Notes: generated by a model not told the origin, from the sequence alone. 64,000 nucleotides of DNA from an uncultured Gammaproteobacteria bacterium (GCA_964531275.1 CAZHDZ010000002.1:122180-186179), one strand, 5' to 3'; positions 633 through 28,253 are shown, counted from the first letter of the stretch. Numbers and translations are program-made.

Positions 633-690
633 ATTTGATATACTCATTTCTTGTGGGTATTCAACGAAATCTTTGATATACTCATTTGTT

Positions 691-1611
691 ATGGATGTAC
701 AAGGAAATCTTCTGATTCTATTCGCGGTAATTATAGTAGCCTTCTTGGCTTTAGATCTTGGATACTTCAACAGGAAAGCACATAAAGTAACACCAAAAGC
801 AGCTCTCATACAGTCAATTTTCTGGGTAGGGGTTTCTATCGCCTTTGCTTTTTTAATAGCAATTTACATGGGGCAAAAAGTTGCGGTCGAATTTATGAGC
901 GCGTACGTCACAGAAAAAATGCTGTCTGTAGATAACCTTTTTGTCATAATGCTTATTTTTAATTTCTTCAAAATTGAGGAGAGATTTCATCATAAGGTAC
1001 TTTTCTGGGGAATTATGGGAGCAATTGTTTTTCGTGCAATTTTTATTCTATTGGGAGCATTTATTATTCATAATTTCAGCTGGGTTCTTTATGTATTCGG
1101 AGCGATACTCGTGTATACAGGTATCAAGTTATTTTCTGACAAAAAGGAAGAACATGTTGATTTCAATAATAATCGCGCGGTAAGAATTACTAGAAAATTT
1201 CTTCCGATAACAAGCGATTACCATAATGGTAAATTTTTTACCAGAAAGAAAGGCAAAATTTTATTCACAGAGCTAGTGCTTATTATCGTACTTGTTGAGG
1301 CTACCGATATTGTTTTTGCTATAGATTCTATTCCTGCTGCATTTGCTATTTCTCAAAATCCTTTCATTGTTTTTACTTCTAATATTTTTGCGATTATGGG
1401 ACTAAGAGCTCTGTTCTTTTTGCTTCAGAATGTTATGGATAAATTTCATCATCTACAGAAAGCTTTATCTTTTATTTTAGTTTTTATTGGTGGAAAGATG
1501 CTGCTAGGAATTTTTCATCTTCATTTAGACTCATTAGTATCTTTCGGGGTTATTATGGCCGCCCTTATTATTTCACTTATTACATCTGTACTTTTCCCCA
1601 AGAAAGTCTAG
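691..1611 (+). CDS. TerC family integral membrane protein
   Basis: ORF track 673..1611 uses a TTG start; the ATG at 691 gives MDVQGNLLILFAVIIVAFLALDLGYF. The protein has multi-TM TerC-like composition and the DxxxD/LSVDNLFV-type motifs typical of TerC/Alx. Confidence 0.7.
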   Translation: MDVQGNLLILFAVIIVAFLALDLGYFNRKAHKVTPKAALIQSIFWVGVSIAFAFLIAIYMGQKVAVEFMSAYVTEKMLSVDNLFVIMLIFNFFKIEERFHHKVLFWGIMGAIVFRAIFILLGAFIIHNFSWVLYVFGAILVYTGIKLFSDKKEEHVDFNNNRAVRITRKFLPITSDYHNGKFFTRKKGKILFTELVLIIVLVEATDIVFAIDSIPAAFAISQNPFIVFTSNIFAIMGLRALFFLLQNVMDKFHHLQKALSFILVFIGGKMLLGIFHLHLDSLVSFGVIMAALIISLITSVLFPKKV

Positions 1612-2168
1612 AGGTAGCTGTCAAAAGGAACTGCTGTCTCTCCTCTAAATACCATTCCTGATGTAGATGAGCCTATTGGTAATGTTGCTAGAGCAACTAC
1701 TTTTGCCGCAACCTCCTCAGGAAGCCTGTCTCCACCTGGGTTCATGTTGGTTTTGACTTTGCCTGGGTCCAGAGCATTTATAAGTACTCCATTGTGTGTT
1801 CTTTTTAATTCGCCTGCTAAAGAAGCTAGATAATAAAGTTCTGCAGCCTTAGACATTCCATATCCAGCCCCTCCTTTTGCACCAACCTCCTCAAGAGCTC
1901 TTTTATAGCTTCCCCAACTTCCAAACATCTGAACAATTCTTCCATAATTTGCTTCTTGCATCGCTGGCAAAACAGCTTGTGTCATATTTACAGAACCCAA
2001 TGTGTTCACTTCAAGCTCCTGTCTTATTACATCTATTGATACTGTAGATGCTTTTACGTTGCGGTCTTCTTGAGGAAATACAACGGCACAGTTAACGAGA
2101 ACATTTGCTCCTCCATTTCTCGCGTAGACCCTTCTTGCCAAGTTCTTTACTGCATGCTTAGTTGTCAA
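1608..2168 (-). CDS. SDR family oxidoreductase, C-terminal portion only (N-terminal Rossmann segment missing; probable gene remnant)
   Basis: 186 aa containing NCAVVFPQED, the YGMSKAA (YxxxK) active-site motif and LINALDPG, but no TGxxxGxG NAD-binding N-terminus. Local GC is clearly higher than the surroundings. Confidence 0.5.
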   Translation of the reverse strand: MTTKHAVKNLARRVYARNGGANVLVNCAVVFPQEDRNVKASTVSIDVIRQELEVNTLGSVNMTQAVLPAMQEANYGRIVQMFGSWGSYKRALEEVGAKGGAGYGMSKAAELYYLASLAGELKRTHNGVLINALDPGKVKTNMNPGGDRLPEEVAAKVVALATLPIGSSTSGMVFRGETAVPFDSYL

Positions 2169-2212
2169 TTATTTTTATATTGATTTGCGGATATTTTGTC
2201 CTGGCGGATGCA

Positions 2213-3334
2213 TTAACTAGTTGCGGGTTTGCTTCCGCTATTGCCCCCAAAGCCAAATCCTTGATCTAGCTTGTTGTTGACACGATTTGATACAAAATCT
2301 CTAAAAACTCCCCGAATTTTACCCGGGATATTGGCTTCATCTGGTTTGTCATATAATCCATCTAGCCCTACAGCTTGCAATACTCCTTCTCCCAGCAAGC
2401 CATATCCTGTGTTTCCGGGCAACACATTTAAAGCCTTAGTTGCTGCACGAGCAGTAGCTCGTTCAACCCATGTCTCATTTGGAGCCCCCAACTCTAACAG
2501 TAATTTACCCAGATTTTTTGTATTGCTCCCAACAGCAGCATGAGAAAGTTTTACAACTTCTTTTTTAAGAGCCGATAAATCACCATCAGACATTGCAAGT
2601 AGCCACCCATCAGCTTTTGCTGACAATTCTGGAACAAGTATATTTCCTGGCAATTTAAAACGTCTTAATGCTTCCCCAACATATGGAATTAGACCAGTAT
2701 TTTGCTCAACTTGCATTGCCGTCATGTCTCTATACCATTTTGTATGCAATGCTTCTCTTACACCTACTCTTCTTACCATTTCTCCTGCCTCCGGGCTTGC
2801 GTCTCTTAAGATCTTATCCTCCAAGTGGTACCAATTACGTGTTAAAAGTTCCTGAGCCATACCAAATGTTGTTAGCTGAACGGGTTTATCACCTGATTCA
2901 TGTATATAATCAAGACTTTGTACTCTAGCTACTTCAGCTTGAATTACGTCTTGAGGAACACCCATCTGCATAAGTATTAGTTGAAAAGGTGTTGAGTGGC
3001 CCTTTTCATCAGGTTCCCAGACATTTCGAGTAAACCTTGTAAGCCAAGGTGCGTTGTGAGCATCTCCTGCTTTTGCAAATTCGTCTGCGTACTGTGTCGT
3101 TGCGCATTCAGTTAATGCAGACAACCAGTTAATATCTTGGAAATCCTTTACTGATATTCCGTTAGGTAGACTATCAAGTGCTGGTGCAATATTTATTCGC
3201 GAAGAAAGATCTAGAAGAACATTCGGTTGCAAAAAACCTGCTGGAGCTGTTGCTTCCAAATGGCTAACATAACCTTCAAGCCCTTGCGCAGTGCTTGTTG
3301 AAGTTGGAGAACCATTGCCTATTATTTCAGACAT
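2213..3334 (-). CDS. hypothetical protein (higher-GC, likely horizontally acquired); function not recognised
   Basis: 373-aa ORF with no motif I can assign. Codon usage and GC differ from the neighbouring AT-rich genes. Confidence 0.45.
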   Translation of the reverse strand: MSEIIGNGSPTSTSTAQGLEGYVSHLEATAPAGFLQPNVLLDLSSRINIAPALDSLPNGISVKDFQDINWLSALTECATTQYADEFAKAGDAHNAPWLTRFTRNVWEPDEKGHSTPFQLILMQMGVPQDVIQAEVARVQSLDYIHESGDKPVQLTTFGMAQELLTRNWYHLEDKILRDASPEAGEMVRRVGVREALHTKWYRDMTAMQVEQNTGLIPYVGEALRRFKLPGNILVPELSAKADGWLLAMSDGDLSALKKEVVKLSHAAVGSNTKNLGKLLLELGAPNETWVERATARAATKALNVLPGNTGYGLLGEGVLQAVGLDGLYDKPDEANIPGKIRGVFRDFVSNRVNNKLDQGFGFGGNSGSKPATS

Positions 3335-3396
3335 AGTATATGTTATCAGATAGATCTCTAGGTAATGAGAATTTTGATATATAATAATTTTTTCAT

Positions 3397-4533
3397 ATGA
3401 ACTACATAGAGGTTATTGATGAGATATTTAGCCAATTCAAAGGGCAAAAGTTTGCTATAAAATTTTGGAATGGCAAAACAATTCAGTATGGTTCCGGAAA
3501 ATCGCCAGCTTTCACTTTAATTTTCAAAGATGAAGTAACGGTTCAGAGATTGCTTGGTCAGGGTTCATTAGGTTTTGGAGAATCCTACATGGATGAGTCC
3601 TTACAGATAGAGGGTGACATTGAAAGCTATCTTCGCATGCGTCACCAATTCAAGCATATAAAGCCTTCTCTTCGTCTTGCCATTGCGCGAATTCTATCCA
3701 ACAAGCCAAGGCATAAAAGTCGCAAAGATCAAATTTCACATCATTACGATTTGGGTAATGATTTTTTTAAATTAATCTTAGACAACACAACCATGATGTA
3801 CTCATCAGCTTTCTATAAAAATGAAAAAGAAAAATTAAATAGTGCTCAAACAAACAAAATAGAATTTATTTGTAAGTGGCTTGATCTACCAAGTAATTCA
3901 CAAGTTCTCGACCTTGGATCCGGTTGGGCAGGATTTGCAAAAATAGCAGCTCAAAAATTTAAGTGGAATGTTATTGGGCTCACATTAAGCCAAGCGCAGC
4001 TTGCCTATTCGCAGGATCTAACTGAAAAAGAAAAATTGCAGAAGAAAGTAGTATTTAAAGAGCAAGATTTTGTAAAAGCTTTACCGTCAAAAAAGTTTGA
4101 TGGAGCGGTAATTATTGAATCTATAGAGCATGTTGGACAAAATAATCTTCAAAAATTCTTTAAGGATGTAGCAAAAGTTCTAAAATCAGGAGCACCTTTT
4201 ATCATTCAGACAACCGGAAGATACGAAATTCACAGAGTAGATAAGTGGACATTGAAGTATGTATTTCCAGGAGGTTATCTTCCAAGTAAGGGAGAGCTGT
4301 TGAAGTATGCTCAGGATGCAGGATTTACTGTCGAGCTTTTCCGCGATGATACAGATGACTACATTCGTACCATGACGATATGGATACAAAATCTGGAAAA
4401 GAATCAAAAGACAATTGAGAAAATGTTTGACAAGTCATTCTATAGACTATGGTATCTATGGATGCATGGAGCAAAAGTTAATTTTGAAATAGGAGACATG
4501 AGTCTTTTTCGAATAAAGTTGCGTCGAGCATAA
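3397..4533 (+). CDS. cyclopropane-fatty-acyl-phospholipid synthase family SAM-dependent methyltransferase
   Basis: HYDLGNDFFKL...MMYSSAFY and the VLDLGSGWAG SAM-binding motif, with overall length typical of the CFA synthase / mycolic acid methyltransferase family. Confidence 0.75.
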   Translation: MNYIEVIDEIFSQFKGQKFAIKFWNGKTIQYGSGKSPAFTLIFKDEVTVQRLLGQGSLGFGESYMDESLQIEGDIESYLRMRHQFKHIKPSLRLAIARILSNKPRHKSRKDQISHHYDLGNDFFKLILDNTTMMYSSAFYKNEKEKLNSAQTNKIEFICKWLDLPSNSQVLDLGSGWAGFAKIAAQKFKWNVIGLTLSQAQLAYSQDLTEKEKLQKKVVFKEQDFVKALPSKKFDGAVIIESIEHVGQNNLQKFFKDVAKVLKSGAPFIIQTTGRYEIHRVDKWTLKYVFPGGYLPSKGELLKYAQDAGFTVELFRDDTDDYIRTMTIWIQNLEKNQKTIEKMFDKSFYRLWYLWMHGAKVNFEIGDMSLFRIKLRRA

Positions 4534-4577
4534 CAAGTGATTGAGAAATGTAAGGATTTACTGTAATAATCAACTAT

Positions 4578-5429
4578 ATGGACCCTCAAGCACAACAGCC
4601 AACAGCTCAACAAAATCCTGTCCCAACCACCGATTCTATTGCTATATCATCTATTCCTGCTGAAATTCCGAAGAAAGTAAAAAGATTTGAACTCTTGATG
4701 TATATTGGAATTGGATTAAGTCTTCTTACTTCGTCGTCATTTTTCCCATTCCTTCTCTTTGGCCTTGGGCTTGTATATTTAACTGTCAGAAAAAAAATAC
4801 CTTGGGCAAGAACAGCCCTGACAGTAGTGGTTGCTTTCGGTGTTTTTTCGACGTTACTGAGCATGGGAGGAATGCTTTACAACTTTAATCTTATTTATCT
4901 TATTGCCTTGCCTACCGCTTTTATTCAGGTTTATGCCATGTGGCTTATTTATTCAAAAGAAGCTAATCAGTGGATCTATGGCGACTATTCATTGCCAGGG
5001 GCAACGCAACCTACTGTTAGTAGAATTTGGCAAAAAACCATCCCGCTTACTAATCTCATCTTTTTAATAATTTCTGCTATTGCTGTTTTTGGTGTGGATT
5101 TTATTATTCTTATTAATTCTTTTGAGCTTCTTCCTTTTTGGATCGAAATGCTAGTAGTATTTGCAGTTTTTATGATCTTTTTTTATCTTGAGAATTACAG
5201 ATTCAAGTCGAAATTTTCAGATTCGTTTTCCTGGGCAGATAACGGTATTTATTCATTAGTACTTATCAGGAATATAATTCTTTTCTTAAATTTCATACCA
5301 TTCATTCAGATTGCAGGTGCATTAGCAACGGCGGTTGGAATCATTCCCTACATTATTATTTATTCAGTCCTAATTAATAAAAGAGACAAGATTGGTGTAG
5401 TTAACGCTTCTACAAATAATTCATTCTAA
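4578..5429 (+). CDS. hypothetical 8-TM membrane protein, paralog A (MDPQ-family)
   Basis: 283 aa with a Q/P-rich N-terminus followed by TM helices. The C-terminal half (LLPFWIEMLVVFAVFMIFFYLENYRFKSKF...LNFIPFIQIAGA) is nearly identical in pattern to the 5881..6786 product. Confidence 0.6.
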   Translation: MDPQAQQPTAQQNPVPTTDSIAISSIPAEIPKKVKRFELLMYIGIGLSLLTSSSFFPFLLFGLGLVYLTVRKKIPWARTALTVVVAFGVFSTLLSMGGMLYNFNLIYLIALPTAFIQVYAMWLIYSKEANQWIYGDYSLPGATQPTVSRIWQKTIPLTNLIFLIISAIAVFGVDFIILINSFELLPFWIEMLVVFAVFMIFFYLENYRFKSKFSDSFSWADNGIYSLVLIRNIILFLNFIPFIQIAGALATAVGIIPYIIIYSVLINKRDKIGVVNASTNNSF

Positions 5430-5516
5430 AACAGTAAATTCATGAAGAATCAATACAAACTAGGTTCATCACAGTCTACCCGTAATGGTTCACTGCGTGA
5501 TATGGTGTCTCCTTAA

Positions 5517-5828
5517 ATGCCAGGAAATATTAAAATTTCCAGAGCCCAAATAATTCTAGGAGTTGTTTTTAATGTTCTAAGTTTTTTGATTTTAATATTA
5601 GCCATTAGGGGAAGTTTTGAGATAAAGGATTATGTAGGGGCGCTTCTTTGGAGTTTGGTCTGGGCAACACCTCTTTTGCTTGGAAAGCTTTTTGTTGCTT
5701 ACTTAGCTATTCGTAAAAACTTAAATACCTTAAGAATTCTGCTGTTGCTTTGGTTCTGCTTGGACATAATCGCTTTTTTGATAGTACTTCTTTATATGGA
5801 CTTTTTCCGTGTGTTGAAGTACTTTTAA
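5517..5828 (+). CDS. truncated paralog of the MDPQ-family membrane protein (N-terminal half only)
   Basis: The 103-aa LLGKLFVAYLAIRKNLNTLRILLLLWFCLDIIAFLIVL aligns to AVGKLVLVHFFLRKRSNVIRILLLGWVCLDMIIVM of the 5881 gene. The conserved C-terminal half is absent. Confidence 0.4.
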   Translation: MPGNIKISRAQIILGVVFNVLSFLILILAIRGSFEIKDYVGALLWSLVWATPLLLGKLFVAYLAIRKNLNTLRILLLLWFCLDIIAFLIVLLYMDFFRVLKYF

Positions 5829-5880
5829 TTTCTTAGCCCAAGAAGTAACTATCTTAGGCAAGCAATGTGTAGTAAATCTA

Positions 5881-6786
5881 ATGGATCCACAGACCCAAAT
5901 TATTCAACAACCTGTCCAACAAAATTTACCAGAAGGTAAGATCCATGCAATGCCTAGAGCTATGATTTTATTCTCATTCTTAATGTATGTGGGTGCATTT
6001 TTGAGTATAGTTGGTCCTCCCATGATGCTTAAGATGTTGGATTCTGGTTTTTACTCTTCAAGAACAAACGATCAGGCATTATTCCTAAGCGCTTTAGTTA
6101 TTGTACCGTTTGCAGTGGGAAAGTTAGTGCTTGTACACTTTTTTTTGAGAAAGAGAAGCAACGTAATAAGAATTTTATTATTAGGGTGGGTTTGCTTGGA
6201 TATGATCATTGTGATGGCAAATTCGCTTGGTAGCGCTGGTAGTTTTATGGCTCCAATGTTCATTCCGTTTCTTGCTCCTCTTGTTCAACTTATTTCACTC
6301 TTTTTTCTTTTCAGTGCCAGCTCTAGAGAATGGTTCATAACAGGGTTTTCTAGTACATCAGAACTTTCGAGGAGGTATTGGTACAAAATTATACCGAAAA
6401 CAAACATTGTATTTCTGGTACTGTCCTGCATCTTAGTATTTGGGCTAGACTTGTTAATCTTATTGTCTTCACCTATGCTTTTTCCTTTTTGGATTGAAAT
6501 GCTTGTCGCTTTTGGAGTCTTTATGGGATTCTTCTATGCGGAATGCTACACCTTTAGATCTAAGTTTTCTCAATCTTATTCAAGCGTTGATATCCCACTG
6601 TACTGCCTAATAGTTCTACGAAATTTTGTTCTATTCCTCAACTTTATTCCTTTAATTCAAATTATTGGTGCTATATTATCTGCAGTGGGTATTTTGCCTT
6701 ATCTTATTGTGTATGTGATATTAATTAGGATTCGAAATAAAGAAACTATGGTTGCGCCAGTAGCTATTCCTCAACCTCAGCCCTAA
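5881..6786 (+). CDS. hypothetical 8-TM membrane protein, paralog B (MDPQ-family)
   Basis: 301 aa; the same start (MDPQTQ) and the same C-terminal FPFWIEMLVAFGVFMGFFY...LNFIPLIQIIGA block as the 4578 gene. Confidence 0.6.
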   Translation: MDPQTQIIQQPVQQNLPEGKIHAMPRAMILFSFLMYVGAFLSIVGPPMMLKMLDSGFYSSRTNDQALFLSALVIVPFAVGKLVLVHFFLRKRSNVIRILLLGWVCLDMIIVMANSLGSAGSFMAPMFIPFLAPLVQLISLFFLFSASSREWFITGFSSTSELSRRYWYKIIPKTNIVFLVLSCILVFGLDLLILLSSPMLFPFWIEMLVAFGVFMGFFYAECYTFRSKFSQSYSSVDIPLYCLIVLRNFVLFLNFIPLIQIIGAILSAVGILPYLIVYVILIRIRNKETMVAPVAIPQPQP

Positions 6787-7493
6787 AGCTTGCTAGCCTT
6801 TGACATTACCAATTCTGCTGCTACTTCAAATTCGTTACGTAATTTGGTAACTTTTACTTTTTTGGGATCTTTAAAGATATCCTTCGGATAAAGCGGCTTA
6901 CCAAAGGCAAAAATAATTTTCTTTTTTCCAGAAAGAATATTTGGGATAGTAAAATGTTCAGTGCCTGAAATTTTGACTGGAATTATTGGCAAACCCGTTT
7001 TGTAGCTTAAGAATGCTACTCCCCCTCTTGCCTTAGGTTTCTTAATATCACGAGTTACCCTGCCATGTGGAAATATACCTACGTTTCTCCCCTCTTTGAG
7101 AATCTGAAGATGATGAGGAAGGGCTCGTTCGTAGTCCTTAAGACCTTTATATGTTGGATATGCGCCAATTAACCTAAAGAAAAAACCTCCATAAAAGAAA
7201 TTTTTCCAGAACCCTAGGTATTTGTAGCTTGCCAAGGAGACATAGATTACTGGAAAATTTTTTGATAAGAACGGCAGAACAGATACCATAAGGAGTGGAT
7301 CCATTTCACTTAGGTGATAAGGCGCAAATATTGCATTGCTCTTGAGTCTTTCAACGTTTTTTATTCCTTTAATTTGAAGCGAGCAAAACAAAATCATAAC
7401 CGTTCTTAGCGGGAGCCAAACTGCTCGTTGAAAAAATATAGGGGAGGTGTATTTGTTCATTTTGAAAATGACTATTGACAGAAGAATTTGCAA
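6783..7493 (-). CDS. lysophospholipid (1-acyl-sn-glycerol-3-phosphate) acyltransferase, PlsC family
   Basis: HxxxxD-type block (APYHLSEMDP) and FPHGRVTRD (the FPEGTR-equivalent) characteristic of PlsC/LPLAT acyltransferases. Confidence 0.6.
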   Translation of the reverse strand: MQILLSIVIFKMNKYTSPIFFQRAVWLPLRTVMILFCSLQIKGIKNVERLKSNAIFAPYHLSEMDPLLMVSVLPFLSKNFPVIYVSLASYKYLGFWKNFFYGGFFFRLIGAYPTYKGLKDYERALPHHLQILKEGRNVGIFPHGRVTRDIKKPKARGGVAFLSYKTGLPIIPVKISGTEHFTIPNILSGKKKIIFAFGKPLYPKDIFKDPKKVKVTKLRNEFEVAAELVMSKASKL

Positions 7494-7514
7494 TGATTAC
7501 ATTTTATATACACC

Positions 7515-8162
7515 ATGAATTTGTTAGTAACATTATTTTTTCTTCAGAACATTATAGTAACAACTCTTCTTGGTTACAAATTCTTTTCTCAAAAAAACCC
7601 AGTATTTAAGAATTTTGGCATTGCCTTATTCCTAAATGCAGTAGCATTTGCTATTTGGTCATATGCAATTATCACCCAAGCCTCAGATCTAGGATTTTAC
7701 GTAACTGCTGGTGCTGCACCATTTATTGGATCCTTAGTTTTTTTAATGTTGGTAAGTGCGCAAAAAGTAAGCGAATCAATGAGAAAGAATCTTGTTATTG
7801 GATCTGCGGTAGTAGGTTTGGTGCTATTTGCTTTAAGAACTTTTGTATATCCATCAGCTCCTTCAATTTCTGAAGAAGGTTTGTTCTTCTTCAACTTACA
7901 CCCGATAATTCAAATGTTGTACGCCTTGGGCTTAGGATTTACTGCCATTCCAGCTATTAGTTTTGTGGCCGCAAAATTTAAAGGCAGATATTCTGCTATT
8001 GTGCGTTACGGATTTCTTTTAGAGGTAATTGGCGGAATTCTGCTTATGACAACATCTAATACATTCATGCTTTATATTTTGGGTTGGGTAATGGGTATTA
8101 CTTATTTTGTCCTGTGTGTTACTCTCGTTTTTAATAAAAAAACTTGGTCTCTATCCAATTAG
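7515..8162 (+). CDS. hypothetical multi-TM membrane protein
   Basis: 215 aa, about 6 hydrophobic helices, no recognisable motif. Confidence 0.45.
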   Translation: MNLLVTLFFLQNIIVTTLLGYKFFSQKNPVFKNFGIALFLNAVAFAIWSYAIITQASDLGFYVTAGAAPFIGSLVFLMLVSAQKVSESMRKNLVIGSAVVGLVLFALRTFVYPSAPSISEEGLFFFNLHPIIQMLYALGLGFTAIPAISFVAAKFKGRYSAIVRYGFLLEVIGGILLMTTSNTFMLYILGWVMGITYFVLCVTLVFNKKTWSLSN

Positions 8163-8224
8163 TATTCTGCCACTCTTCCTCTGCTAGAATAGCATACCTT
8201 TATGAAAGTTCTACATATAGGTTT

Positions 8225-8251
8225 ATGAAAATTTTACTTATACGACTATGA
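8225..8251 (+). other. 8-codon uORF (MKILLIRL) whose TGA overlaps the ATG of the downstream gene (ATGA) and which mimics its N-terminus (MRILLTG)
   Basis: atgaaaattttacttatacgactatga versus the gene start atgagaattttgcttactgga. Confidence 0.35.
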
Positions 8252-9186
8252 GAATTTTGCTTACTGGAATTTCAGGTAATTTAGGTTATGAAGTAGCTAG
8301 TGAATGTATTAAGAAAAATATTGAGATAATTCCTCTTGTGAGAAATAAGATATCAGTAGAGGAGTTATTTGACGTGAGTATATTCCCCGAAATCATAGAA
8401 ACAGATCTCTTAAGTGACCAAAAAATAAATCTTAGCTCATCAGTTGACGCAATTGTTCATTGCGCGGGAATTGTGCATTTTAAGAAAGCAGAGAATAATA
8501 ATGAGAAAATGCTCACAAAAATGATTGAGCTTGCTAAATGTATTGATGCCCCACTTTACTTTGTGAGCACAGCTTTTACCTTTAGGCCTCACAATGAGAA
8601 CTTTGTCCCGAATAACTCATACGAGCAAGACAAGTATAACTGCGAGAAATTGCTTAAAAATTCAGACATTCAACATTCCATAATAAAACCTTCTGTTCTT
8701 ACTGGCAGCAGTACAGACGGCTCTATAAGAAATTTTACAGGCTACTACTCTCTTCTTAAGGGTCTTTTGCAATACGCTGATATCTCTAGTAATAATGGAA
8801 TCAAATTAAGAGTTCCAAGATTCACGGGTTACTCAGACATTGTTCCTATTGATTTAGTTGCGCAAGAGATTGTTGGAATGGTGAAGTCACATACGCTTAA
8901 CGAATTGTATCTAACAAACATGAATCCACCTAAAGCGATGTGGCTATTTTCTGAGACGTTAGATTACTTTAACCTTTCTGAAGTCGTATCGATGGTAGAC
9001 ATGTCATTTGATCAATTTGGTAAGTTAAAATTGACTAAGGAAGAAAAGGAATTTCGTGAATTTAGCCAACACTTTTTGCCATACTGGGAACTTGGTTATA
9101 ATTTCCCTAATTCTGCGTTAAAGAATGCGTCTGTAGATAGAACTTATTTAAAGAAAATATTAGACTATTTTATATTACATAATTGA
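8248..9186 (+). CDS. NAD(P)-dependent epimerase/dehydratase or thioester-reductase-like extended SDR
   Basis: N-terminal LLTGISGNLG Rossmann motif and a YEQDK YxxxK motif. Confidence 0.6.
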   Translation: MRILLTGISGNLGYEVASECIKKNIEIIPLVRNKISVEELFDVSIFPEIIETDLLSDQKINLSSSVDAIVHCAGIVHFKKAENNNEKMLTKMIELAKCIDAPLYFVSTAFTFRPHNENFVPNNSYEQDKYNCEKLLKNSDIQHSIIKPSVLTGSSTDGSIRNFTGYYSLLKGLLQYADISSNNGIKLRVPRFTGYSDIVPIDLVAQEIVGMVKSHTLNELYLTNMNPPKAMWLFSETLDYFNLSEVVSMVDMSFDQFGKLKLTKEEKEFREFSQHFLPYWELGYNFPNSALKNASVDRTYLKKILDYFILHN

Positions 9187-9189
9187 TTA

Positions 9190-10272
9190 ATGAGTAAAGA
9201 AATTATTAACTATAGTCAATGTTGGGAAGATCCCACCATTCTTCTTAGGGCACTAAAGATATCAAAAAATGACATTGTTCTTTCGATAACTTCAGGAGGA
9301 GATAATACTTTGTCGATCGTGTCAAAGGATCCTAAGAAAATCGAAACAATTGATACCAATAGTGCTCAAAATTATCTTTTTGACCTAAAACTTTCCGCAA
9401 TACACTCCTTAAGTTATGATGAAGTACTTGAGTTTTTGGGGTTATCAGATTCTACTGATCGTATAGGGCTTTTTAAAAAACTTAAAGGAAATTTAAATTC
9501 AAAATCATTCAGTTGGTGGTTAAGTAAACCAACTCTTATTGAAAAAGGAGTAATTCATGTAGGAAAGCTTGAGCGCTTTCTCAATGGATTTCGAAGATTT
9601 GTGCTTCCTTTAATTCATGCCCAGAGTACCATAGAAGAATTTTGCTCGCAGGTAACACTTAGGAGGCAGCAAGTTTTTTACGCAAAATTTTGGAATACGT
9701 GGAAATGGAGAGCGTACTTCAAGATTTCGTCTCACCCTTTTGTTCTTAATCGCTTTGCAAGACAAAAAGAAATGACTTCCAACGTATCAACAGGAATAGT
9801 TACAACTAAATACTTTGATCGGCTTGAAAAAAGTCTTAATCAACAGCTCCTCTCAAATAACTATTTCATGACGTATTGCCTGAAAGGAAGCTTTTCAGAC
9901 ACTAAGCCGCACTATTTGAATGCAGACTCTTACAACAATATTAGAGCTTCCAAAACAGCAATAAATGTTACAACCATAGACGCTCTATCCTTTCTTAAAT
10001 CCGCAAAGACTAATACTTTTTCGAAATATAATCTATCCGACATCTTTGAGGCATTACCCCCAAAAGAATATGAAATGCTTTGGGAAGAAATAGTTAGAAC
10101 TGCTAAGAATAACGCTACTGTTGCCTACTGGAACAATCTTATAAAGAGACCTCTACCTTACCATTTGAAGCAAGTTGTTAGGGAAGACATGCGTCTGTCA
10201 AAAGTGTTAAGTAATCAGGATAGAGTCTTTTTTTATGACGGCTTTCACGTATGCACGATAATCAAGAAATGA
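9190..10272 (+). CDS. DUF3419 / BtaA-like protein (SAM:diacylglycerol 3-amino-3-carboxypropyl transferase family)
   Basis: N-terminus INYSQCWEDPTILLRALKISKNDIVLSITSGGDNTLS...IDTNSAQNYLFDLKL matches the BtaA/DUF3419 signature (YxQxWEDP ... SGGxN ... D-N-AQ ... LKL) as I recall it. Confidence 0.55.
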   Translation: MSKEIINYSQCWEDPTILLRALKISKNDIVLSITSGGDNTLSIVSKDPKKIETIDTNSAQNYLFDLKLSAIHSLSYDEVLEFLGLSDSTDRIGLFKKLKGNLNSKSFSWWLSKPTLIEKGVIHVGKLERFLNGFRRFVLPLIHAQSTIEEFCSQVTLRRQQVFYAKFWNTWKWRAYFKISSHPFVLNRFARQKEMTSNVSTGIVTTKYFDRLEKSLNQQLLSNNYFMTYCLKGSFSDTKPHYLNADSYNNIRASKTAINVTTIDALSFLKSAKTNTFSKYNLSDIFEALPPKEYEMLWEEIVRTAKNNATVAYWNNLIKRPLPYHLKQVVREDMRLSKVLSNQDRVFFYDGFHVCTIIKK

Positions 10273-11147
10273 AAAACAACCTATTTTATAAATTTTATGT
10301 GTATCAAAATGAGCGATTTCCTCTGATTGTGCTTGCAATAAGTTTGCTTCCTGCAGTTCTTAGCTCTAGTGTAATTGTAGAAAGTGCAGCTTCCGTGCCC
10401 AAGATAGGACTGACAGTTTTAATCGCAATACTTTATCTGCTTCACGTACGTTTGTTAGATGATAGACGGGATTTTTTGCATGACAATAAATTTCACAAAG
10501 ACCGTCCTGTTCAGATGGGAATTATTTCTAAGAAAGAGCTTATCTCTATAGATATACTTATAGTCCCACTATTAGTTCTTCTTGCACTTCTTAGCGGACC
10601 ATTGGCATTGCTCCTCATGCTACTTCTCATATCCTTTTCTTACTTTGCAGAGCAAAATTTTCATATTGGATCATTTCTGAGCCGACACTTCTTCCTCTAC
10701 AACTTGTTGAATACGTGTCAGACGATTGGTTTGCAAATATTTATATACTTTTTCCTCAATAGTAAATTAGAAATTAACAATCTTTTGTTTTTACATTTTC
10801 TTTTTACTTGTCTCGGTACCCTAGTATTCGAATTTGCACGGAAAGTAAAACGGCCTGGTAAAGATGGTTCTGGAAAAGACACCTATACTCACTTCCTGGG
10901 TTTTAGAAAGTCTATTTTTGCTTACTTGTTCTTATGCTGTATCAATTTGAGCATTTTTCTAGCCATTGCAACAATCATTGCTAAAGATAGTTCAGGCATA
11001 GTTGTGGGCACTATTTTGGCTGCTATCTTAATTTTAGGCACATCCATATTCCACCTTAAGAAGAAGGAAGCGTATTCTGAAAAAATAATGCAGCTATCCT
11101 TCATTTTGTCTTATGCAGTATGTAATTTAGTAATTTTTCTCTTATGA
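10269..11147 (+). CDS. UbiA-family prenyltransferase-like membrane protein
   Basis: LDDRRDFLHDNKFHKDRPVQMGIISKKE parallels the UbiA motif NDxxDxxxD...RP...G, and the protein has 7-8 TM helices. The ATG at 10269 overlaps the upstream stop (ATGA). Possibly a DGGGP-synthase-like enzyme. Confidence 0.5.
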   Translation: MKNNLFYKFYVYQNERFPLIVLAISLLPAVLSSSVIVESAASVPKIGLTVLIAILYLLHVRLLDDRRDFLHDNKFHKDRPVQMGIISKKELISIDILIVPLLVLLALLSGPLALLLMLLLISFSYFAEQNFHIGSFLSRHFFLYNLLNTCQTIGLQIFIYFFLNSKLEINNLLFLHFLFTCLGTLVFEFARKVKRPGKDGSGKDTYTHFLGFRKSIFAYLFLCCINLSIFLAIATIIAKDSSGIVVGTILAAILILGTSIFHLKKKEAYSEKIMQLSFILSYAVCNLVIFLL

Positions 11148-12733: not shown

Positions 12734-12734
12734 T

Positions 12735-13739: not shown

Positions 13740-14359
13740 ATCTAGCATTCTTCGGTTTTCTTGTCATGTCAATTGCTATTTTATTTATTTCTGAAATTGC
13801 CAGAAGAAAGCTAAATTTGCCTACGGAAATAACAAGAAGAGCTACACATGTAGTTGCTGCATTTATTGCTGCGATTTCCTCTCTATTCTTAGATAAATGG
13901 TTAATTGTAGTAGGATGTCTACTGTTTGCTGGAATAATGTTCTTATCTCGAAGAACAAGCCTTTTTAACTCTATACAAAAAGTAAAAAGAAAATCTTTGG
14001 GTGAAGTGTTCTTACCATTAAGCGAGGCAATAACAGCTTTAATTTTCCTGCCCATAGGACGGATCGAATTTCAGTATGGAGTGCTTGTCATGGGTCTTTC
14101 CGATCCTCTTGCTGGATTTATAGGAACGCGTTTTGGAAAACACGAAATTAAAATATTAGGAAACACAAAAAGCCTCGAGGGGTCACTTTCTTTCTTTCTA
14201 TGTACATTGATGTTGACACTTGTCTTTGCTCCCACGATAGGAATTAACTTACTAATCCTGCCCTTGTTATTAACGCTTATAGAGATTTGCCTAGGCTATG
14301 GTACAGACAACCTTGTGCTCCCTATCGCAGGAGCTACTCTGCTAAGTTTTTGTATATAA
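13736..14359 (+). CDS. CTP-transferase-1 superfamily membrane protein (polyprenol/phytol-kinase- or CdsA/CarS-like)
   Basis: GLSDPLAGFIGTRFGKHEIKILGNTKSLEGSLSFF resembles the VTE5/Sec59 GDxxAxxxGxxxGxxK...KSxEGS motif. 207 aa, multi-TM. The ATG overlaps the upstream stop. Confidence 0.45.
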   Translation: MNLAFFGFLVMSIAILFISEIARRKLNLPTEITRRATHVVAAFIAAISSLFLDKWLIVVGCLLFAGIMFLSRRTSLFNSIQKVKRKSLGEVFLPLSEAITALIFLPIGRIEFQYGVLVMGLSDPLAGFIGTRFGKHEIKILGNTKSLEGSLSFFLCTLMLTLVFAPTIGINLLILPLLLTLIEICLGYGTDNLVLPIAGATLLSFCI

Positions 14360-14569
14360 AATTCTCAAAAGAAAATTTTCTTTGCATTTCCTTACTATAA
14401 TCTTGTCGTGTTGGATGTCAGAAATCTGCATACTTTAATGAGTATGTTAAATATGATTTCAAATACTCTCTCTGTGTTATCTAGGAGGTTTTACGCTCTT
14501 TGCGGAATTAAAGGCCATGAAGTGTACTCACTTTTTGTCCAAGTTACTATGCATTGAGAATGTAAATAC

Positions 14570-21202: not shown

Positions 21203-21212
21203 AAATGGCTAG

Positions 21213-23653: not shown

Positions 23654-23754
23654 AATTATTCACCTCCATTCTTTTTACTATGCTACGTTCTTAGTGTAAA
23701 AATTCATGTAAATATATGTAATAGAGGTGTAAGGATGCCTGATATAATAATTAC

Positions 23755-24852
23755 ATGCAGCGAATATTATTGATTCTTAGTTTCTTACTACTGTCCTTCT
23801 TCTTTGCGCCTCAAGTGTTGGCCCAAAGCGATTTTTCTGAAAAGCGATTTGAAGGTACTATTATCGCAATCGCCGAAACAAGCAGAATAATAGAGGCCAA
23901 TGGCAATGCGCATCCATACCAGCGCCTGAAAGTTCTTGGTACTTCGGGCGAATTTAAAGGTAAGACGTATGAAGTAGAAAACGGTTCTTATAACCAGTCC
24001 GGGGTGGTATCCTACTCGGTTGGTGACAAAGTTCTTCTTTCTGCACAAAAAGATGTATCAGGAAGAACAACAATATTTATTAATGATTACGTAAGGCGCG
24101 GCCCTCTCTATCTGCTTGCAGCAATATTTATTGTCCTTGCGATAGTTATTGGTGGAAAACGTGGAATTTTTTCTTTAGTTGGTCTTATCCTTACTTTTGT
24201 CTTGATTTTTACGTTTGTACTTCCTGCAATCTCTTCCGGACAAAATCCAATAGTAATATCAATCATAGCCTCAATTGTAATTGTGCCCGTTACCTTTATT
24301 TTGTCGCATGGGGTTAACAAAAAAACTTTTTGTGCTATTTTCTCAACATTTATAGTTCTTGTTATTACCGCTATTCTCTCCCAGATATTTATTGGCGCAA
24401 CACATCTTTCCGGTTTTTCCTCCGATGAAGTCTCTTTTCTAAATACAATAAAAAAAGGAATGGTGGATGCAAAAGGATTACTCTTTGCAGGTATTTTAAT
24501 AGCCTTATTGGGGATTTTGGATGACATTACAATTGCTCAATCAGCAATCGTATTTCAACTCAAAAAAGCAAATCAAGAGCTAGGATTCCTTGAACTTTTT
24601 AAAAGGGCTATGGACGTAGGACGAGATCATATATCTTCTATGGCAAGTACGTTAATTCTTGTGTATGCAGGTGCGTCCCTACCTCTTCTTTTGCTTTTTA
24701 TAAATAGCCCTCTCCCCTATGAGCAGGTAATAAATTATGAAATTATTGCTGAGGAAATAGTTAGAACTTTAACTGCAAGTATTGGACTTATTTTAGCCGT
24801 ACCTATAACAACACTACTTACTGCCCTTGTTGCTTCGCAAAGAGCTAAATAA
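23755..24852 (+). CDS. YibE/F family membrane protein with signal peptide and N-terminal extracytoplasmic domain
   Basis: Signal peptide MQRILLILSFLLLSFFFAPQVLA, then a roughly 100-aa soluble domain, then the YibE/F-like TM core (LLAGILIALLGILDDITIAQSAIVFQL...). Confidence 0.55.
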   Translation: MQRILLILSFLLLSFFFAPQVLAQSDFSEKRFEGTIIAIAETSRIIEANGNAHPYQRLKVLGTSGEFKGKTYEVENGSYNQSGVVSYSVGDKVLLSAQKDVSGRTTIFINDYVRRGPLYLLAAIFIVLAIVIGGKRGIFSLVGLILTFVLIFTFVLPAISSGQNPIVISIIASIVIVPVTFILSHGVNKKTFCAIFSTFIVLVITAILSQIFIGATHLSGFSSDEVSFLNTIKKGMVDAKGLLFAGILIALLGILDDITIAQSAIVFQLKKANQELGFLELFKRAMDVGRDHISSMASTLILVYAGASLPLLLLFINSPLPYEQVINYEIIAEEIVRTLTASIGLILAVPITTLLTALVASQRAK

Positions 24853-25162
24853 TCTTAATTAGCGAACCCTTTTTAATTTTAAGTTTTTTTATATTCCCTT
24901 GCGGCATTTCCAGAACCCCATTGTATACTGGATTCCACAGATACAGCTTGTTGGGCGTTAGACTTTCCTTACATGCCACCACTTTTCCATCACTATCAAC
25001 AATTGCTACATCAATAGGATATTTCATAAAGAATGTATGTATTCCGAAATGAGTTTTAAAATAAATTGCGACTGGTTTTTTTGAAGTTAGCAGACCTTCG
25101 CTTTTTTCTTTCCAGGAATGTAACTTTTTTGCCTTAATTTTAATCATTCTTACAGCTCCCAT
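24845..25162 (-). CDS. DUF192 domain protein
   Basis: ...HTFFMKYPIDVAIVDSDGKVVA...NGVLEMPQG matches DUF192 (COG1430). The ORF track extends to a TTG at 25183; the ATG at 25162 is more plausible. Confidence 0.5.
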   Translation of the reverse strand: MGAVRMIKIKAKKLHSWKEKSEGLLTSKKPVAIYFKTHFGIHTFFMKYPIDVAIVDSDGKVVACKESLTPNKLYLWNPVYNGVLEMPQGNIKKLKIKKGSLIKII

Positions 25163-25177
25163 GATACGATATAGGAT

Positions 25178-25219
25178 ATGCAATTAGTAGATGACGTTTT
25201 TAGCGAAGCGAACATGTGA
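25178..25219 (+). other. 13-codon uORF (MQLVDDVFSEANM) duplicating the RBS region and first 8 codons of obg, 134 nt upstream
   Basis: ataggatATGcaattagtagatgacgttttt versus the obg start ataggatATGcaattagttgacgatgtattt. The four nucleotide differences in codons 1-8 are all synonymous. Confidence 0.45.
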
Positions 25220-25311
25220 GGGAGCCAAAAACATCCCAACTCACTCTAGCACAGACAAGAATTGTTGCTTTGATTTAATCATAGCTTCAGTCACATGTTA
25301 TAATATAGGAT

Positions 25312-26277
25312 ATGCAATTAGTTGACGATGTATTTATCAATGTAAAAGCTGGTAATGGTGGAAATGGTGCCACTGTTACAAAGCAGATGTATGCATCCAA
25401 AAAAACTATGCCCGACGGTGGTAATGGTGGCAATGGGGGCAATGTTTTCTTTAAGGCTGATGCCAATATCTCGGACCTTTCTCAATTCCAGTTCAAAAAG
25501 AAAATAAGAGGTATTGATGGGGTCTCTGGGTTAAATAAGGATTTAGATGGAGCAAACGGCGAGGATATTACTGTTCTTGTGCCATTTGGGACTAACATTT
25601 TTAATGAAGATACTAAGGAACATGTCGAATTGACCACAGATTTACCCTTTTGTGTTGCTTTTGGAGGAACCGGAGGAATGGGAAATCATGATTTCAAGCC
25701 AGATATAAAGACTTTTTCGCCTCGTCAACATTTAGGCACGATGGGGGATGATTTTAGACTACATTTAGTTCTTAATCTTATTGCTGATATTGGACTCGTT
25801 GGATTTCCAAATGCTGGAAAAAGCTCTCTTTTAAAAGCGTTAACCAATGCAACACCTAAAATTGGCGACTATCCCTTTACAACTCTTGATCCAAATTTGG
25901 GGGTTTTTGAAAAACTAGTTATTGCAGATGTACCCGGACTTATTGAGGGAGCATCAGGCGGTAAAGGACTAGGTATAAAATTTCTAAAGCATATTAAAAA
26001 AACTAAGCTTCTACTCCATTGTGTTGCTGCCACAGAAGACGACCCTTATAAGACATATATGACAATACGAAATGAATTTAAGGAATTTGATTCTTCTTTG
26101 CTTGAAAAGGAGGAAGTAATCCTTCTTACTAAAAGCGATCTTATTAGTGAAGGTGAGGTTGAAGTAAAACTTAAATCCCTTAAGAAAGCAAAAAAACCTG
26201 TTCTTGCGGTTAGTGTTTATGAAGAAGAGGCTCTTGCCGCAGTACGTCACCAACTACTAACTTCTCTTAAACCGTAA
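25312..26277 (+). CDS. obg: GTPase Obg/CgtA (short form without C-terminal extension)
   Basis: N-terminal glycine-rich Obg fold (NVKAGNGGNGATV...DGGNGGNGGNVFF), then the G domain with GFPNAGKSSLL (G1) and DYPFTTLDPNLGV (G2/switch). Confidence 0.85.
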   Translation: MQLVDDVFINVKAGNGGNGATVTKQMYASKKTMPDGGNGGNGGNVFFKADANISDLSQFQFKKKIRGIDGVSGLNKDLDGANGEDITVLVPFGTNIFNEDTKEHVELTTDLPFCVAFGGTGGMGNHDFKPDIKTFSPRQHLGTMGDDFRLHLVLNLIADIGLVGFPNAGKSSLLKALTNATPKIGDYPFTTLDPNLGVFEKLVIADVPGLIEGASGGKGLGIKFLKHIKKTKLLLHCVAATEDDPYKTYMTIRNEFKEFDSSLLEKEEVILLTKSDLISEGEVEVKLKSLKKAKKPVLAVSVYEEEALAAVRHQLLTSLKP

Positions 26278-26352
26278 TTATTAGCTACCAACCACCGATC
26301 ACCATCCACTAATTCAGTTTTCTTTCAGTCCTTTTCTGATAGAATATTCCCG

Positions 26353-27021
26353 ATGCGGATTTTAATTGTTGAGGACGAACAAAAAATAGCCAATTCCCTA
26401 AAGAAAGGTTTTGAGCAAGAATCATATGCGGTTGATGTTACGTATGACGGACGTGATGGATATGAAATGGCAATATCTGAAGAGTACGACGTAATAATTT
26501 TAGATAGACTTATGCCAAAAATGAGTGGTATCGAGCTTTGTAAGAAGCTCCGGGAAGAAAAAAATCATACTCCTATTATTATGTTGACAGCACGCGGGGA
26601 AGTTGATGATAAAGTAGAAGGTCTTAACGCCGGAGCGGATGACTATCTTCCGAAGCCATTTGCATTTGCGGAGCTTCTGGCTCGTGTGAGAGCTGTCTCG
26701 CGGCGTCCAAAAGCTGCTGTCGCCTCAGTTCTCCAGGTCGGTGACTTGACACTTGATTCTGTGACATTCGAAGCTGTTAGGGGGAAAATTAGAATTAGTC
26801 TTTCTAGCAAAGAGTATGCACTTCTAGAATATCTCATGCGGCATAAAGGCAAAGTAGTTAAGAAAGAGCAAATAATGACCCATGTATGGAATTATGATGC
26901 AGACGTGATGCCCAATTCAGTTGAGGTTTATATAACACATTTGAGAAACAAGATTGATAAACCTTTTGTTGGACGAGAGCTAATTACTACGGTTAGAGGT
27001 TTTGGTTATAAAATCGGATAA
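26353..27021 (+). CDS. OmpR-family two-component response regulator
   Basis: Receiver domain (ILIVEDE ... D51 in ILDRLMP ... K in LTARGE) plus a C-terminal winged-helix (LTxxEYxLLEYLMRHKGKVVxKEQI...VEVYITHLRNKID). Confidence 0.85.
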   Translation: MRILIVEDEQKIANSLKKGFEQESYAVDVTYDGRDGYEMAISEEYDVIILDRLMPKMSGIELCKKLREEKNHTPIIMLTARGEVDDKVEGLNAGADDYLPKPFAFAELLARVRAVSRRPKAAVASVLQVGDLTLDSVTFEAVRGKIRISLSSKEYALLEYLMRHKGKVVKKEQIMTHVWNYDADVMPNSVEVYITHLRNKIDKPFVGRELITTVRGFGYKIG

Positions 27022-27026
27022 ATTAG

Positions 27027-27242
27027 ATGTTTCACAACGCTAGATTACAACTCACTGCCTGGTATTTGATAAGCGTAGCCAAGCAAATAAATTAATATGT
27101 TTCACAACGCCAGATTACAATTAACGGCATGGTATTTGCTTAGTGTAACGAAGCAAATAAATATGTTCCATAACGCTAGACTACAACTATCGGCATGGTA
27201 TTTGCTTATGATCAAGGACAAAGCAAATACTAACTATTAAAT
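27027..27242 (+). repeat. three degenerate tandem copies (70, 66 and 80 nt) of the histidine-kinase 5' end, forming short uORFs that encode MFHNARLQL(T/S)AWYL...
   Basis: ATGs at 27027, 27097 and 27163, with the real gene ATG at 27243. Each copy starts atgttYcaYaacgcNagaYtWcaaYtNNcNgcMtggtatttg, and the differences fall almost exclusively at synonymous positions. Confidence 0.8.
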
Positions 27243-28253
27243 ATGTTCCATAACGCAAGACTTCAATTAACGGCATGGTATTTGCTTATGATCATGTTCA
27301 TTAGCCTTATTTTTAGCGTGGTCATTTATGCAAATGTCGATCGTGAATTAGTAAGATTCGAGAAATTTCAGGAATTAAGCCGTGATAGAGCCGCTCAATA
27401 TTTTGGGTCATATCCAGGAGCGGAAATCCCCAACACTGTTGACGAGCAACTTATAAATGAAGCAAGAGGTAGACTTTTAAGTGACCTTGTAATTTTAAAT
27501 GTTTGTATTCTCATTGCTGCAGGTGTTGCGGGGTACTTTTTAGCTGGTAGAACACTTACCCCCATTAGAAAAATGATTGAGGATCAGTCTCGATTCTTTG
27601 GAGATGCATCTCACGAGCTCAAAACGCCAATCACCTCTCTCAAGTCTGAAATAGAAATTTATCTTCGACTAAAGAAAAAAAGCTTAAAAGATGCTGACGA
27701 GGTGTTGAAAAGTAACCTTGAAGAAGTTAACAGAATGCAAGACTTAACTAATAACTTACTAACGCTCGCAACGCTTGAAAAAGCAGGTCAAAAGCTAAAT
27801 TTTACCCAAGTATTTATTCGTGAAGTACTCTTGGAAGCTTCAAAAAATGTAAGCGCACAAGCAAAGAAGAAAAAGACCAGCATTACAATAAAGGGTCAAA
27901 ATATTTCTTTTTCAGGCAATCAAAATAGTCTCATTCAGTTATTTACTATTCTTTTTGACAATGCCATTAAATATAGTAAGGACTCAAGCAAGATTGTTGC
28001 AAGCGCCCAAAAGACGAACGGATTCGTGAGTATAAAGGTAGTAGATAATGGAATAGGAATTCCTGAGGATGAAATAGAGAATATATTTGACAGATTTTAT
28101 AGAGTTGATAAATCAAGAACGTCGGGTGACGCTGGAGGTTTTGGCCTTGGGCTTTCGATAGCAAAAGAAATTGTTCTACTTCACGGTGGCGAAATACAAG
28201 TTAAAAGTTCGTCTTCCGGCTCTACATTTACGATCGATATCCCCTCAGCATAG
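27243..28253 (+). CDS. sensor histidine kinase (HisKA + HATPase_c), partner of the upstream OmpR regulator
   Basis: H-box GDASHELKTPITSL, N-box FDNAIKYS, and G boxes DNGIGIPED and GGFGLGLSIAKEIV, with two N-terminal TM segments. Confidence 0.85.
   Translation: MFHNARLQLTAWYLLMIMFISLIFSVVIYANVDRELVRFEKFQELSRDRAAQYFGSYPGAEIPNTVDEQLINEARGRLLSDLVILNVCILIAAGVAGYFLAGRTLTPIRKMIEDQSRFFGDASHELKTPITSLKSEIEIYLRLKKKSLKDADEVLKSNLEEVNRMQDLTNNLLTLATLEKAGQKLNFTQVFIREVLLEASKNVSAQAKKKKTSITIKGQNISFSGNQNSLIQLFTILFDNAIKYSKDSSKIVASAQKTNGFVSIKVVDNGIGIPEDEIENIFDRFYRVDKSRTSGDAGGFGLGLSIAKEIVLLHGGEIQVKSSSSGSTFTIDIPSA

Follow-up and report, generated by a model that had tools for sequence, protein, structure and literature searches.

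Upstream copies of gene starts in a Patescibacteria genome: a case for tolerated scars of slippage and recombination

Why should several unrelated genes in one stretch of bacterial DNA each be preceded by copies of their own beginning? We investigated this question in a window of 64,000 nucleotides (nt) from an uncultured bacterium (GCA_964531275.1, CAZHDZ010000002.1:122180-186179), the window being the whole stretch analysed, with positions counted from its first letter. A sequence-only reading of this DNA had reported upstream copies of the start region at four genes, namely terC, an NAD-dependent epimerase/reductase gene, obg and a sensor histidine kinase (HK) gene, and all four sets of copies are present where it had placed them, with one to three copies each. 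Here we call such a copy a pseudo-start. On balance, and with somewhat better than even confidence, we attribute the pseudo-starts to slippage and to recombination between diverged lineages, and regard them as scars: tolerated duplications of leaderless promoter-start modules that subsequently decay.

We assessed what kind of unit had been duplicated. In protein searches the best matches of Obg were Patescibacteria (Levyibacteriota and others) at 47-51% identity, and by sequence the genome is placed in the Patescibacteria (candidate phyla radiation, CPR) as Levybacteria-like; the G+C content of the window is 36.6%. Shine-Dalgarno cores are scarce across its predicted starts, and 18 of 58 starts have a TAnnnT box ending 5-8 nt 5' of the ATG, often in the extended TGnTAnnnT form. 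A -10 element ends 8 nt before the start codon at terC, and 7 nt before it at obg and at the upstream copy of obg. This pattern suggests that many operon-first genes are leaderless, with promoter, transcription start and start codon within ~20 nt. The duplicated units are copies of such a compact promoter-start module plus the first 6-17 codons. Each terC and obg copy has a -10-type box, and the candidate boxes at the HK and NAD genes are weaker.

Chance was assessed with Tandem Repeats Finder (TRF) arrays of period at least 15 and score at least 60. The window held five such arrays and 40 Markov shuffles of it held one in total. A tiling scan of the 64 kb found strong local direct repeats only in the 5' regions of terC, obg and HK, its one other strong direct repeat being the Gly-rich coding repeat of Obg itself; it found no independent duplicate of a gene 3' end. 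In a scan with start probes (score of at least 20), start-region duplicates were found at 3 of 62 starts in the window; when ~2.2 Mb of loci from other bacteria were scanned, 2 of ~1,940 starts had one. Because obg and its neighbour DUF192 share one duplication, these three starts represent two independent loci. The NAD and terC duplicates are short and at background level by start-probe score, and are recognised by TRF only (scores 67 and 115). The start-probe scan found no comparable duplicates in ~128 kb of same-family loci or in ~136 kb of other CPR loci, so the phenomenon could not be extended to other genomes.

The most elaborate case lies between a response regulator (RR) gene and the HK gene. 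Gene identities here and below were checked with Pfam, and the features of the junction are as follows.
26353-27021, plus strand: OmpR-type RR gene (Pfam), with its stop at 27021
27027-27095, plus strand: HK pseudo-start 1 (HK1), encoding MFHNARLQLTAWYLISVAKQIN then a stop, its ATG 5 nt beyond the RR stop, which is the ancestral position
27097-27240, plus strand: HK pseudo-starts 2 and 3 (HK2 and HK3), fused in frame into an upstream open reading frame (uORF) of 47 amino acids with its second ATG at 27163, by open-reading-frame reading
27243-28253, plus strand: sensor HK gene (Pfam), with its real start at 27243

The three pseudo-starts (ATG at 27027, 27097 and 27163) occupy the 221 nt from the RR stop to the real ATG, and the gaps from each stop to the next ATG are 5, 1 and 2 nt. 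The heads of the units are 79-90% identical, compared with only ~50-60% for the 20 nt preceding each ATG. HK1-type heads begin ATGTTTCACAACGCTAGATTACAACTCACTGCC. Read directly from the sequences, HK2 is a mosaic, with an HK1-like 5' half and codons 8-15 identical to the real start, which points to exchange between copies. HK3 differs from the real head at 4 of 52 nt and was copied from it recently. The possibility that the unit tails are decayed 3' ends of the RR gene was rejected, their alignment being no better than that of shuffles (p 0.25-0.95).

We compared this junction with syntenic loci of relatives obtained from protein searches, namely the L163/L184 type, the L164/L174 type, L165, L166, L168 and L083. 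The window is ~75% identical in nucleotide sequence to both L174 and L184 throughout. The two closest species (L163/L184 and L164/L174) carry two HK pseudo-starts each, ATGTTCCTTGACG... and ATGTTTCATGACG..., which are decayed by indels and frameshifts and are ~50-60% identical to the real head. Within each of these species the array is identical across ten samples (10+10) and three assemblers. These results demonstrate that the RR-HK arrays are real genomic features that recur at this junction and decay, with constant copy number within those species. In L083 the RR-HK junction is an ATGA overlap, and in L166 it is a 1-nt gap. In the comparison of these loci across relatives, which the sequence-only reading had called for, HK arrays were thus found in decayed form in two species, and the obg and terC copies were missing.

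Two further relatives show other structures at the junction. The RR-HK spacer of L168 (9944-10000) contains a 14-nt unit, AACTAGTAACTAAT, repeated 2.5 times, with no pseudo-starts. In the metagenome-assembled genome (MAG) GCA_964436385.1, a 100-N scaffold gap (L165, 4402-4501) coincides exactly with the junction, as would be expected if a repeat or heterogeneity there had defeated the assembler.

The sequence-only reading had also listed an assembly artefact, in which the start regions of co-occurring strains are chained into a false tandem array. This would fit the presence of a related species in the same sequencing run, the resemblance of the HK heads to the heads of different alleles, and the gap at the RR-HK junction of the L165 MAG. 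Against it, two Logan contigs (k=31) of run SRR12762304 match the window exactly over their whole length across the obg and HK loci, reproducing both base for base. The copies are 78-93% identical with indels and share no exact run of at least 31 nt, and by our own reading each junction of head and tail has a sequence of its own that no real gene contains. The relatives' arrays, moreover, come from independent assemblies. We consider an artefact very improbable. As to the related species, L200 is a terC contig that belongs to the L174-type species and derives from SRR12762304, the run that also gave the window's Logan contigs, so two relatives at ~75% nucleotide identity co-occur.

Comparison of the two close relatives revealed a recombination breakpoint inside their array. 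Between L174 and L184, protein identity is 99.1% for the RR, 98.1% for a helicase and 99.8% for DAO, compared with 87.5% for HK and 56.7% for DUF4389; the corresponding nucleotide identities are 93-100% in RR, helicase and DAO, 65-86% in HK and ~50-60% in DUF4389. The drop from 93-97% to 65-86% is located inside the pseudo-start array, and the surrounding 11 kb are a mosaic of blocks with ~60% to 100% identity. The HK gene and the downstream DUF4389 membrane-protein gene are thus a hypervariable cassette between close relatives (window 27243-29244; L174 10001-12002; L184 7759-9591).

We next consider the heads themselves. HK1 differs from the real heads of L163, L184 and L174 at 5 of 42 nt each and from the real head of its own genome at 9 of 42, although these are small numbers. 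HK1 and all the compared real heads encode MFHNARLQLTAWYL, and, by our own reading, only synonymous changes separate the real head of L174 from that of L184. The proportions of synonymous (pS) and non-synonymous (pN) differences between copies were obtained from Nei-Gojobori counts. HK1 versus the real head gave pS 0.91 and pN 0.06 (Fisher p 1.8e-5), and HK1 versus HK2, over 21 codons that include the non-HK tail, gave pS 0.57 and pN 0.06 (Fisher p 1.3e-4), with 7 synonymous and 3 non-synonymous differences. Since HK3 is a recent copy and HK2 a mosaic, the HK evidence comes down to a single old comparison that is independent, between the HK1 type and the real type. The obg copy versus its real start gave pS 1.0 and pN 0 (Fisher p 1.7e-4). 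The claim of synonymous-only divergence at two loci, HK and obg, is thus borne out. For the NAD, terC and DUF192 copies pN/pS is ~0.4-2, and these copies look neutral.

The favoured reading would account for the HK pattern as follows. At the RR-HK boundary, and possibly at the DUF192-obg boundary, imprecise or out-of-register recombination between diverged lineages may have replaced the resident allele, and the upstream HK copies (possibly also that of obg) would be the heads of formerly resident alleles left at the breakpoint. Because each displaced head would have evolved as a real gene start before its displacement, the differences would be synonymous. An allelic origin of HK1 is proposed by analogy with the relatives and is consistent with the heads compared above.

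At obg, the duplicated region lies between two divergent genes, with these features.
24845-25147, minus strand: DUF192 gene (Pfam), divergent from obg
25125-25202, no strand: upstream copy of the DUF192-obg divergent promoter module, comprising the real DUF192 start, TGATACGAT plus 7 nt, and the obg pseudo-start
25178-25219, plus strand: obg pseudo-start uORF with ATG at 25178, encoding MQLVDDVFSEANM then a stop, whose first 8 codons match Obg
25203-25259, no strand: spacer of ~57-60 nt between the copies, with no detectable obg or DUF192 coding similarity
25260-25336, no strand: downstream module copy, comprising the DUF192 pseudo-start, TGTTATAAT plus 7 nt, and the real obg start
25312-26277, plus strand: obg gene, encoding a GTPase (Pfam), with its real ATG at 25312

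The repeat unit (~75 nt) spans the whole divergent promoter region, and therefore both genes have a pseudo-start, that of DUF192 beginning at ATG 25282..25280 on the minus strand and reading MIKSK... The element TGTTATAAT is a perfect extended -10 element 7 nt before the real obg start. Over its first 8 codons the obg uORF shows 4 synonymous and 0 non-synonymous differences from Obg, and its stop lies 93 nt from the real obg ATG. Two resemblances were tried and dropped: the spacer is no more similar to obg codons 9-36 or to DUF192 coding sequence than shuffles are, and the likeness of the DUF192 pseudo-start to the relatives' DUF192 ('LS..LE') is not significant at the protein level. The obg duplication is missing in every relative fetched, and in the three closest only 30 nt separate DUF192 from obg. 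The obg body is 91% identical in amino acids to its orthologues, and a search for signs of an imported obg allele found none, identity to relatives being smooth along the gene.

In this region the upstream obg copy keeps the third-position states of the relatives, with 1 difference in 20 nt from L165, and the changes sit in the real copy. A promoter scan found a minus-strand -35/-10 match over obg codons 4-6 in the downstream copy and reported none in the upstream copy itself. By its position, the obg pseudo-start appears to coincide with the expected -35 region of the promoter that serves the real DUF192 start. The upstream copy is probably also constrained at the nucleotide level, plausibly by overlap with the divergent DUF192 promoter. 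After the duplication, the upstream copy would have remained constrained in its nucleotides and the real gene in its amino acids, and such a split would yield synonymous-only differences without a functional peptide. The same intergenic region is disturbed in other genomes. An IS200/IS605-type Y1 transposase gene lies between DUF192 and obg in L168 (6960-7760) and also in L169 and L171; the insertion in L168 is flanked by ~50-nt repeats with the hairpin CCACCCGCGGGGTGG.

The two remaining loci carry shorter repeats. Their features are listed below, beginning with the terC region.
1-420, minus strand: 5' portion of the gene for a P-type cation ATPase (ATG 420..418), from translation, divergent from terC
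438-652, no strand: 55-nt tandem array of 3.4 copies with 96% identity, in the ATPase-terC divergent promoter region
634-671 and 672-709, plus strand: two copies of the terC promoter-start module, 84% identical, by sequence reading
653-676, plus strand: terC pseudo-start uORF from GTG 653 to TGA 676, encoding VGIQRNL then a stop, with pN/pS ~1 against the real start
691-1611, plus strand: terC, encoding a TerC family membrane protein (Pfam PF03741, E 1.6e-52)
8194-8262, plus strand: three 23-nt units covering -8 to +15 of the epimerase start (TRF score 67, 2.5-3 copies)
8202-8251, plus strand: two 8-codon pseudo-start uORFs, MKVLHIGL then a stop (8202-8228) and MKILLIRL then a stop (8225-8251), with pN/pS ~0.4-0.5
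8248-9186, plus strand: NAD-dependent epimerase/reductase gene (Pfam) with its real ATG at 8248, opening a lineage-specific glycan cluster (8248-14359)

At terC, TRF reports a 38-nt unit repeated 2.2 times (634-716). Each module consists of the extended -10 element TTTGATATACT, 8 nt, and a start codon with 6 codons, and the uORF stop lies 15 nt upstream of the real ATG at 691. The terC orthologues are 306 amino acids long with an identical start position. The terC duplication and the 55-nt array are both missing in three relative species, where the ATPase-terC spacer is 76-82 nt. The 55-nt array contains no start codon, and each unit has a palindrome, CTAAAG-N9-CTTTAG, which could be an operator for two metal-homeostasis genes, the ATPase and terC. 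The ATPase start has a TAGAAT -10 box 6 nt before its ATG, which makes this gene probably leaderless too, and the ATPase gene is also divergent from terC in the gene order of relatives L166 and L194. At the NAD locus the TGA of each uORF overlaps the following ATG as ATGA, twice, and the sole strong extended -10 element is TGCTAGAAT (8182-8190), 5' of the first uORF. The nearest homologue of the epimerase has only 61% identity and lies on a 2.4-kb contig.

The terC, NAD, HK and 55-nt arrays are contiguous head-to-tail, and the obg duplication is not strictly tandem owing to its spacer. Head-to-tail arrangement and non-chance identity, as expected of slipped-strand duplication, were found, together with microhomology at the terC junction (TTTGAT versus TTCTGAT). 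The NAD 23-nt, terC 38-nt and 55-nt units may thus have arisen by slipped-strand duplication, followed by neutral decay. In general, a duplication of 23-134 nt over the 5' boundary of a gene would rebuild a complete module beside the intact gene; it would be tolerated because the full module is recreated there, and the upstream copy would become a pseudo-start encoding a uORF of 7-47 amino acids. The copies may in addition influence expression, either through extra tandem promoters or through a termination-reinitiation relay of the NAD and HK uORFs, although the explanation does not depend on it.

These arrays also raise the possibility of a mutational burst in situ, in which the rate of short tandem duplication was raised, for example by loss of repair, and copies survived wherever they were harmless. 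On this view small-sample noise would account for the synonymous bias, with promoter overlap in addition at obg. Such a burst would suit the head-to-tail geometry, the terC microhomology, the young 55-nt array in the terC intergenic region with its 96% identity, the enrichment peculiar to this genome and the neutral pN/pS of 3 of 5 pseudo-starts. It is poorly suited to HK1, which differs from the real head by 9 substitutions and 0 amino-acid changes with synonymous sites near saturation, and which is nearer to the heads of other species than to its supposed parent. It also leaves the missing 3'-end duplicates without a reason, as these would be equally harmless. We consider a burst quite unlikely as the whole explanation.

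The synonymous bias had led the sequence-only reading to selection on the peptide and to leader peptides acting in cis. We therefore weighed whether the pseudo-starts are functional uORFs, translated and selected, which set the amount of HK or epimerase by a reinitiation relay or which yield micropeptides that mimic the N-terminus; in one variant, a peptide of half the first transmembrane segment could modulate the kinase. The peptide is indeed conserved over saturated synonymous sites at HK (pS 0.91, pN 0.06) and at obg. At HK, gaps of 1, 2 and 5 nt separate a stop from the ATG that follows it, and the NAD stops overlap that ATG as ATGA; the identity of the HK heads is 79-90%, against ~50-60% for the 20 nt upstream of their ATGs. 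However, the uORFs are conserved in no relative, being decayed or frameshifted at HK and missing at obg and terC, and the NAD, terC and DUF192 copies evolve neutrally. A stop close to the next ATG is expected by chance in AT-rich tails, and the NAD overlap is automatic because a 23-nt period is combined with an ATGA start context. At obg the stop and the real ATG are 93 nt apart, and a stretch of 8 shared residues probably could not act as a peptide. The HK case is a single independent old comparison with p ~0.01.

Searches for regulatory structure or homologues gave no support to such a function. A simple scan found no terminator-like site at 300-800 or 24800-27400, the predicted RNA fold of the HK array is not significant (z -0.52) with no antiterminator structure apparent, and Rfam gave no family match in window 1-30000 at E <= 1 apart from one tRNA. 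The 47-aa uORF had no short-protein homologue among 1.84 billion representatives, which is a weak test since very short reading frames are rarely called; it gave 14 matches at E <= 0.001, all of them repetitive proteins of 670-3122 amino acids that we judged spurious. These findings argue against leader or cis-acting peptides, which are unconserved in relatives and accompanied by no terminator, fold, Rfam match or homologue. Functional uORFs are thus an unlikely explanation, and we infer that the pseudo-starts have no peptide function. Of the inference to peptide selection, the bias at two loci stands; the conclusion does not follow from it, with three other copies neutral-looking and relatives unconserved. 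The step to an undescribed regulatory style is likewise unsupported. The bias has cheaper candidate explanations, in a plausible overlap with the DUF192 promoter at obg and in what may be displaced allele heads at HK.

A broader form of this idea, in which tandem own-start modules are kept by selection and the peptides or their translation act as a relay or decoy setting downstream expression, is doubtful. Peptide conservation over synonymous saturation between HK1 and HK2 is the one observation that still fits it. If it were true, it would be a new kind of cis-regulation made from fragments of the regulated gene itself, in a phylum where expression is almost unstudied.

Phase or copy-number variation at contingency loci, also raised by the sequence-only reading, hardly comes into consideration. 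The tandem geometry at gene starts is suggestive, and the 55-nt array (96% identity) could slip. The start copies, in contrast, contain indels and have 78-93% identity, a divergence at which slippage should not be frequent. No copy-number change was seen over 20 samples in two relatives, ten for each; for the window species the data come from a single run. Gain or loss of a unit would also leave the gene on, because the last copy always has its own start.

Several results weigh against the favoured reading of structural scars, particularly its recombination part. No block boundary is visible in the window itself, for which there is no close relative for comparison, and no recently transferred block was seen between the window and its co-occurring relative, their identity being uniformly ~75%. 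No donor lineage was found for HK1 or for the current HK allele, and no mosaicism was found in the obg gene body, whose identity to relatives is smooth along the gene. For HK1 versus the real head, a binomial test gives p 0.008 under constraint on one lineage and p 0.0003 under constraint on neither; a neutral pseudo-start as diverged as HK1 should carry non-synonymous changes too. If HK1 arose in situ, peptide-level selection would have had to act over a time comparable to that since the species separated. Finally, tolerance alone is insufficient to explain why 3'-end duplicates number 0 against 4-5 at 5' ends, and the high frequency of duplicates in this one genome, of which 64 kb were seen, is unaccounted for.

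If the scar reading is true, compact leaderless modules make gene 5' ends unusually tolerant of duplication, and gene starts in these Patescibacteria are preferred junctions for the exchange of diverged alleles, as at HK-DUF4389. Pseudo-starts would then be a legible record of past allele replacements. Synonymous-only divergence of an upstream copy would, on its own, be no proof of a functional peptide.

Other features of the window were also recorded. The genes after terC (~1600-14500, including the glycan cluster 8248-14359) have no counterpart beside terC in relative L197, and they probably form an island specific to this lineage. The only other non-coding tandem array is an AT-rich repeat with a 22-nt unit in ~2.5 copies (33862-33920), ~100 nt 5' of a gene starting at 34017. 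A 12-nt unit repeated ~4 times (49906-49953) is an in-frame coding repeat in a minus-strand open reading frame (49764-50363).

We compared these loci with known systems. The icd scars of Escherichia coli (e14 and phage 21, with a 163-bp pseudo-icd) and Rac at the 5' end of ttcA likewise place a partial gene terminus beside an intact gene. In the published example the gene end is replaced conservatively, with a single Asp to Glu change (PMC6379469). The window copies differ from e14 and phage 21 at icd, since they lie 0-60 nt apart with no integrase, mobile element or open reading frame between them, as duplication of an attachment (att) site would leave. They also involve 5' ends including the promoter, reach up to three stacked copies and affect several unrelated genes within 27 kb.

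Leader-peptide attenuators (trp, his and erm) resemble these loci in having a short reading frame upstream on the same strand; unlike there, the simple scan of the window loci found no terminator-like site, the fold showed no apparent antiterminator, no regulatory codon run was seen, and there is no Rfam match and no conservation in relatives. Closely spaced or overlapping stop and start codons are reported to permit termination-reinitiation coupling (PMC10666635). Judged by spacing, the NAD ATGA overlaps and the HK stops 1-5 nt before an ATG would be compatible with such coupling, and the relatives' RR-HK junctions are similarly spaced. Unlike in such coupling, the upstream reading frames are fragments of the downstream gene, and terC (15 nt) and obg (93 nt) do not fit.

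Leaderless genes are extensive in Mycobacterium tuberculosis, as Cortes et al. reportedly described in 2013. The starts studied here resemble them in having a -10 box, often TGnTAnnnT, 5-8 nt before the ATG and no Shine-Dalgarno sequence. They differ from known leaderless genes in the tandem duplication of such modules; in the literature searched we found no description of tandem duplication of leaderless starts or of pseudo-starts.

Homology-facilitated illegitimate recombination and out-of-register homeologous recombination are described in naturally transformable Acinetobacter and Streptococcus pneumoniae. Here, unlike there, no donor is identified, and the short NAD and terC copies resemble plain slippage. 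The likeness is that one homologous anchor and one imprecise junction can insert a foreign allele and leave part of the resident one, and the breakpoint inside the relatives' array makes this process a candidate mechanism, and only a candidate, in this lineage.

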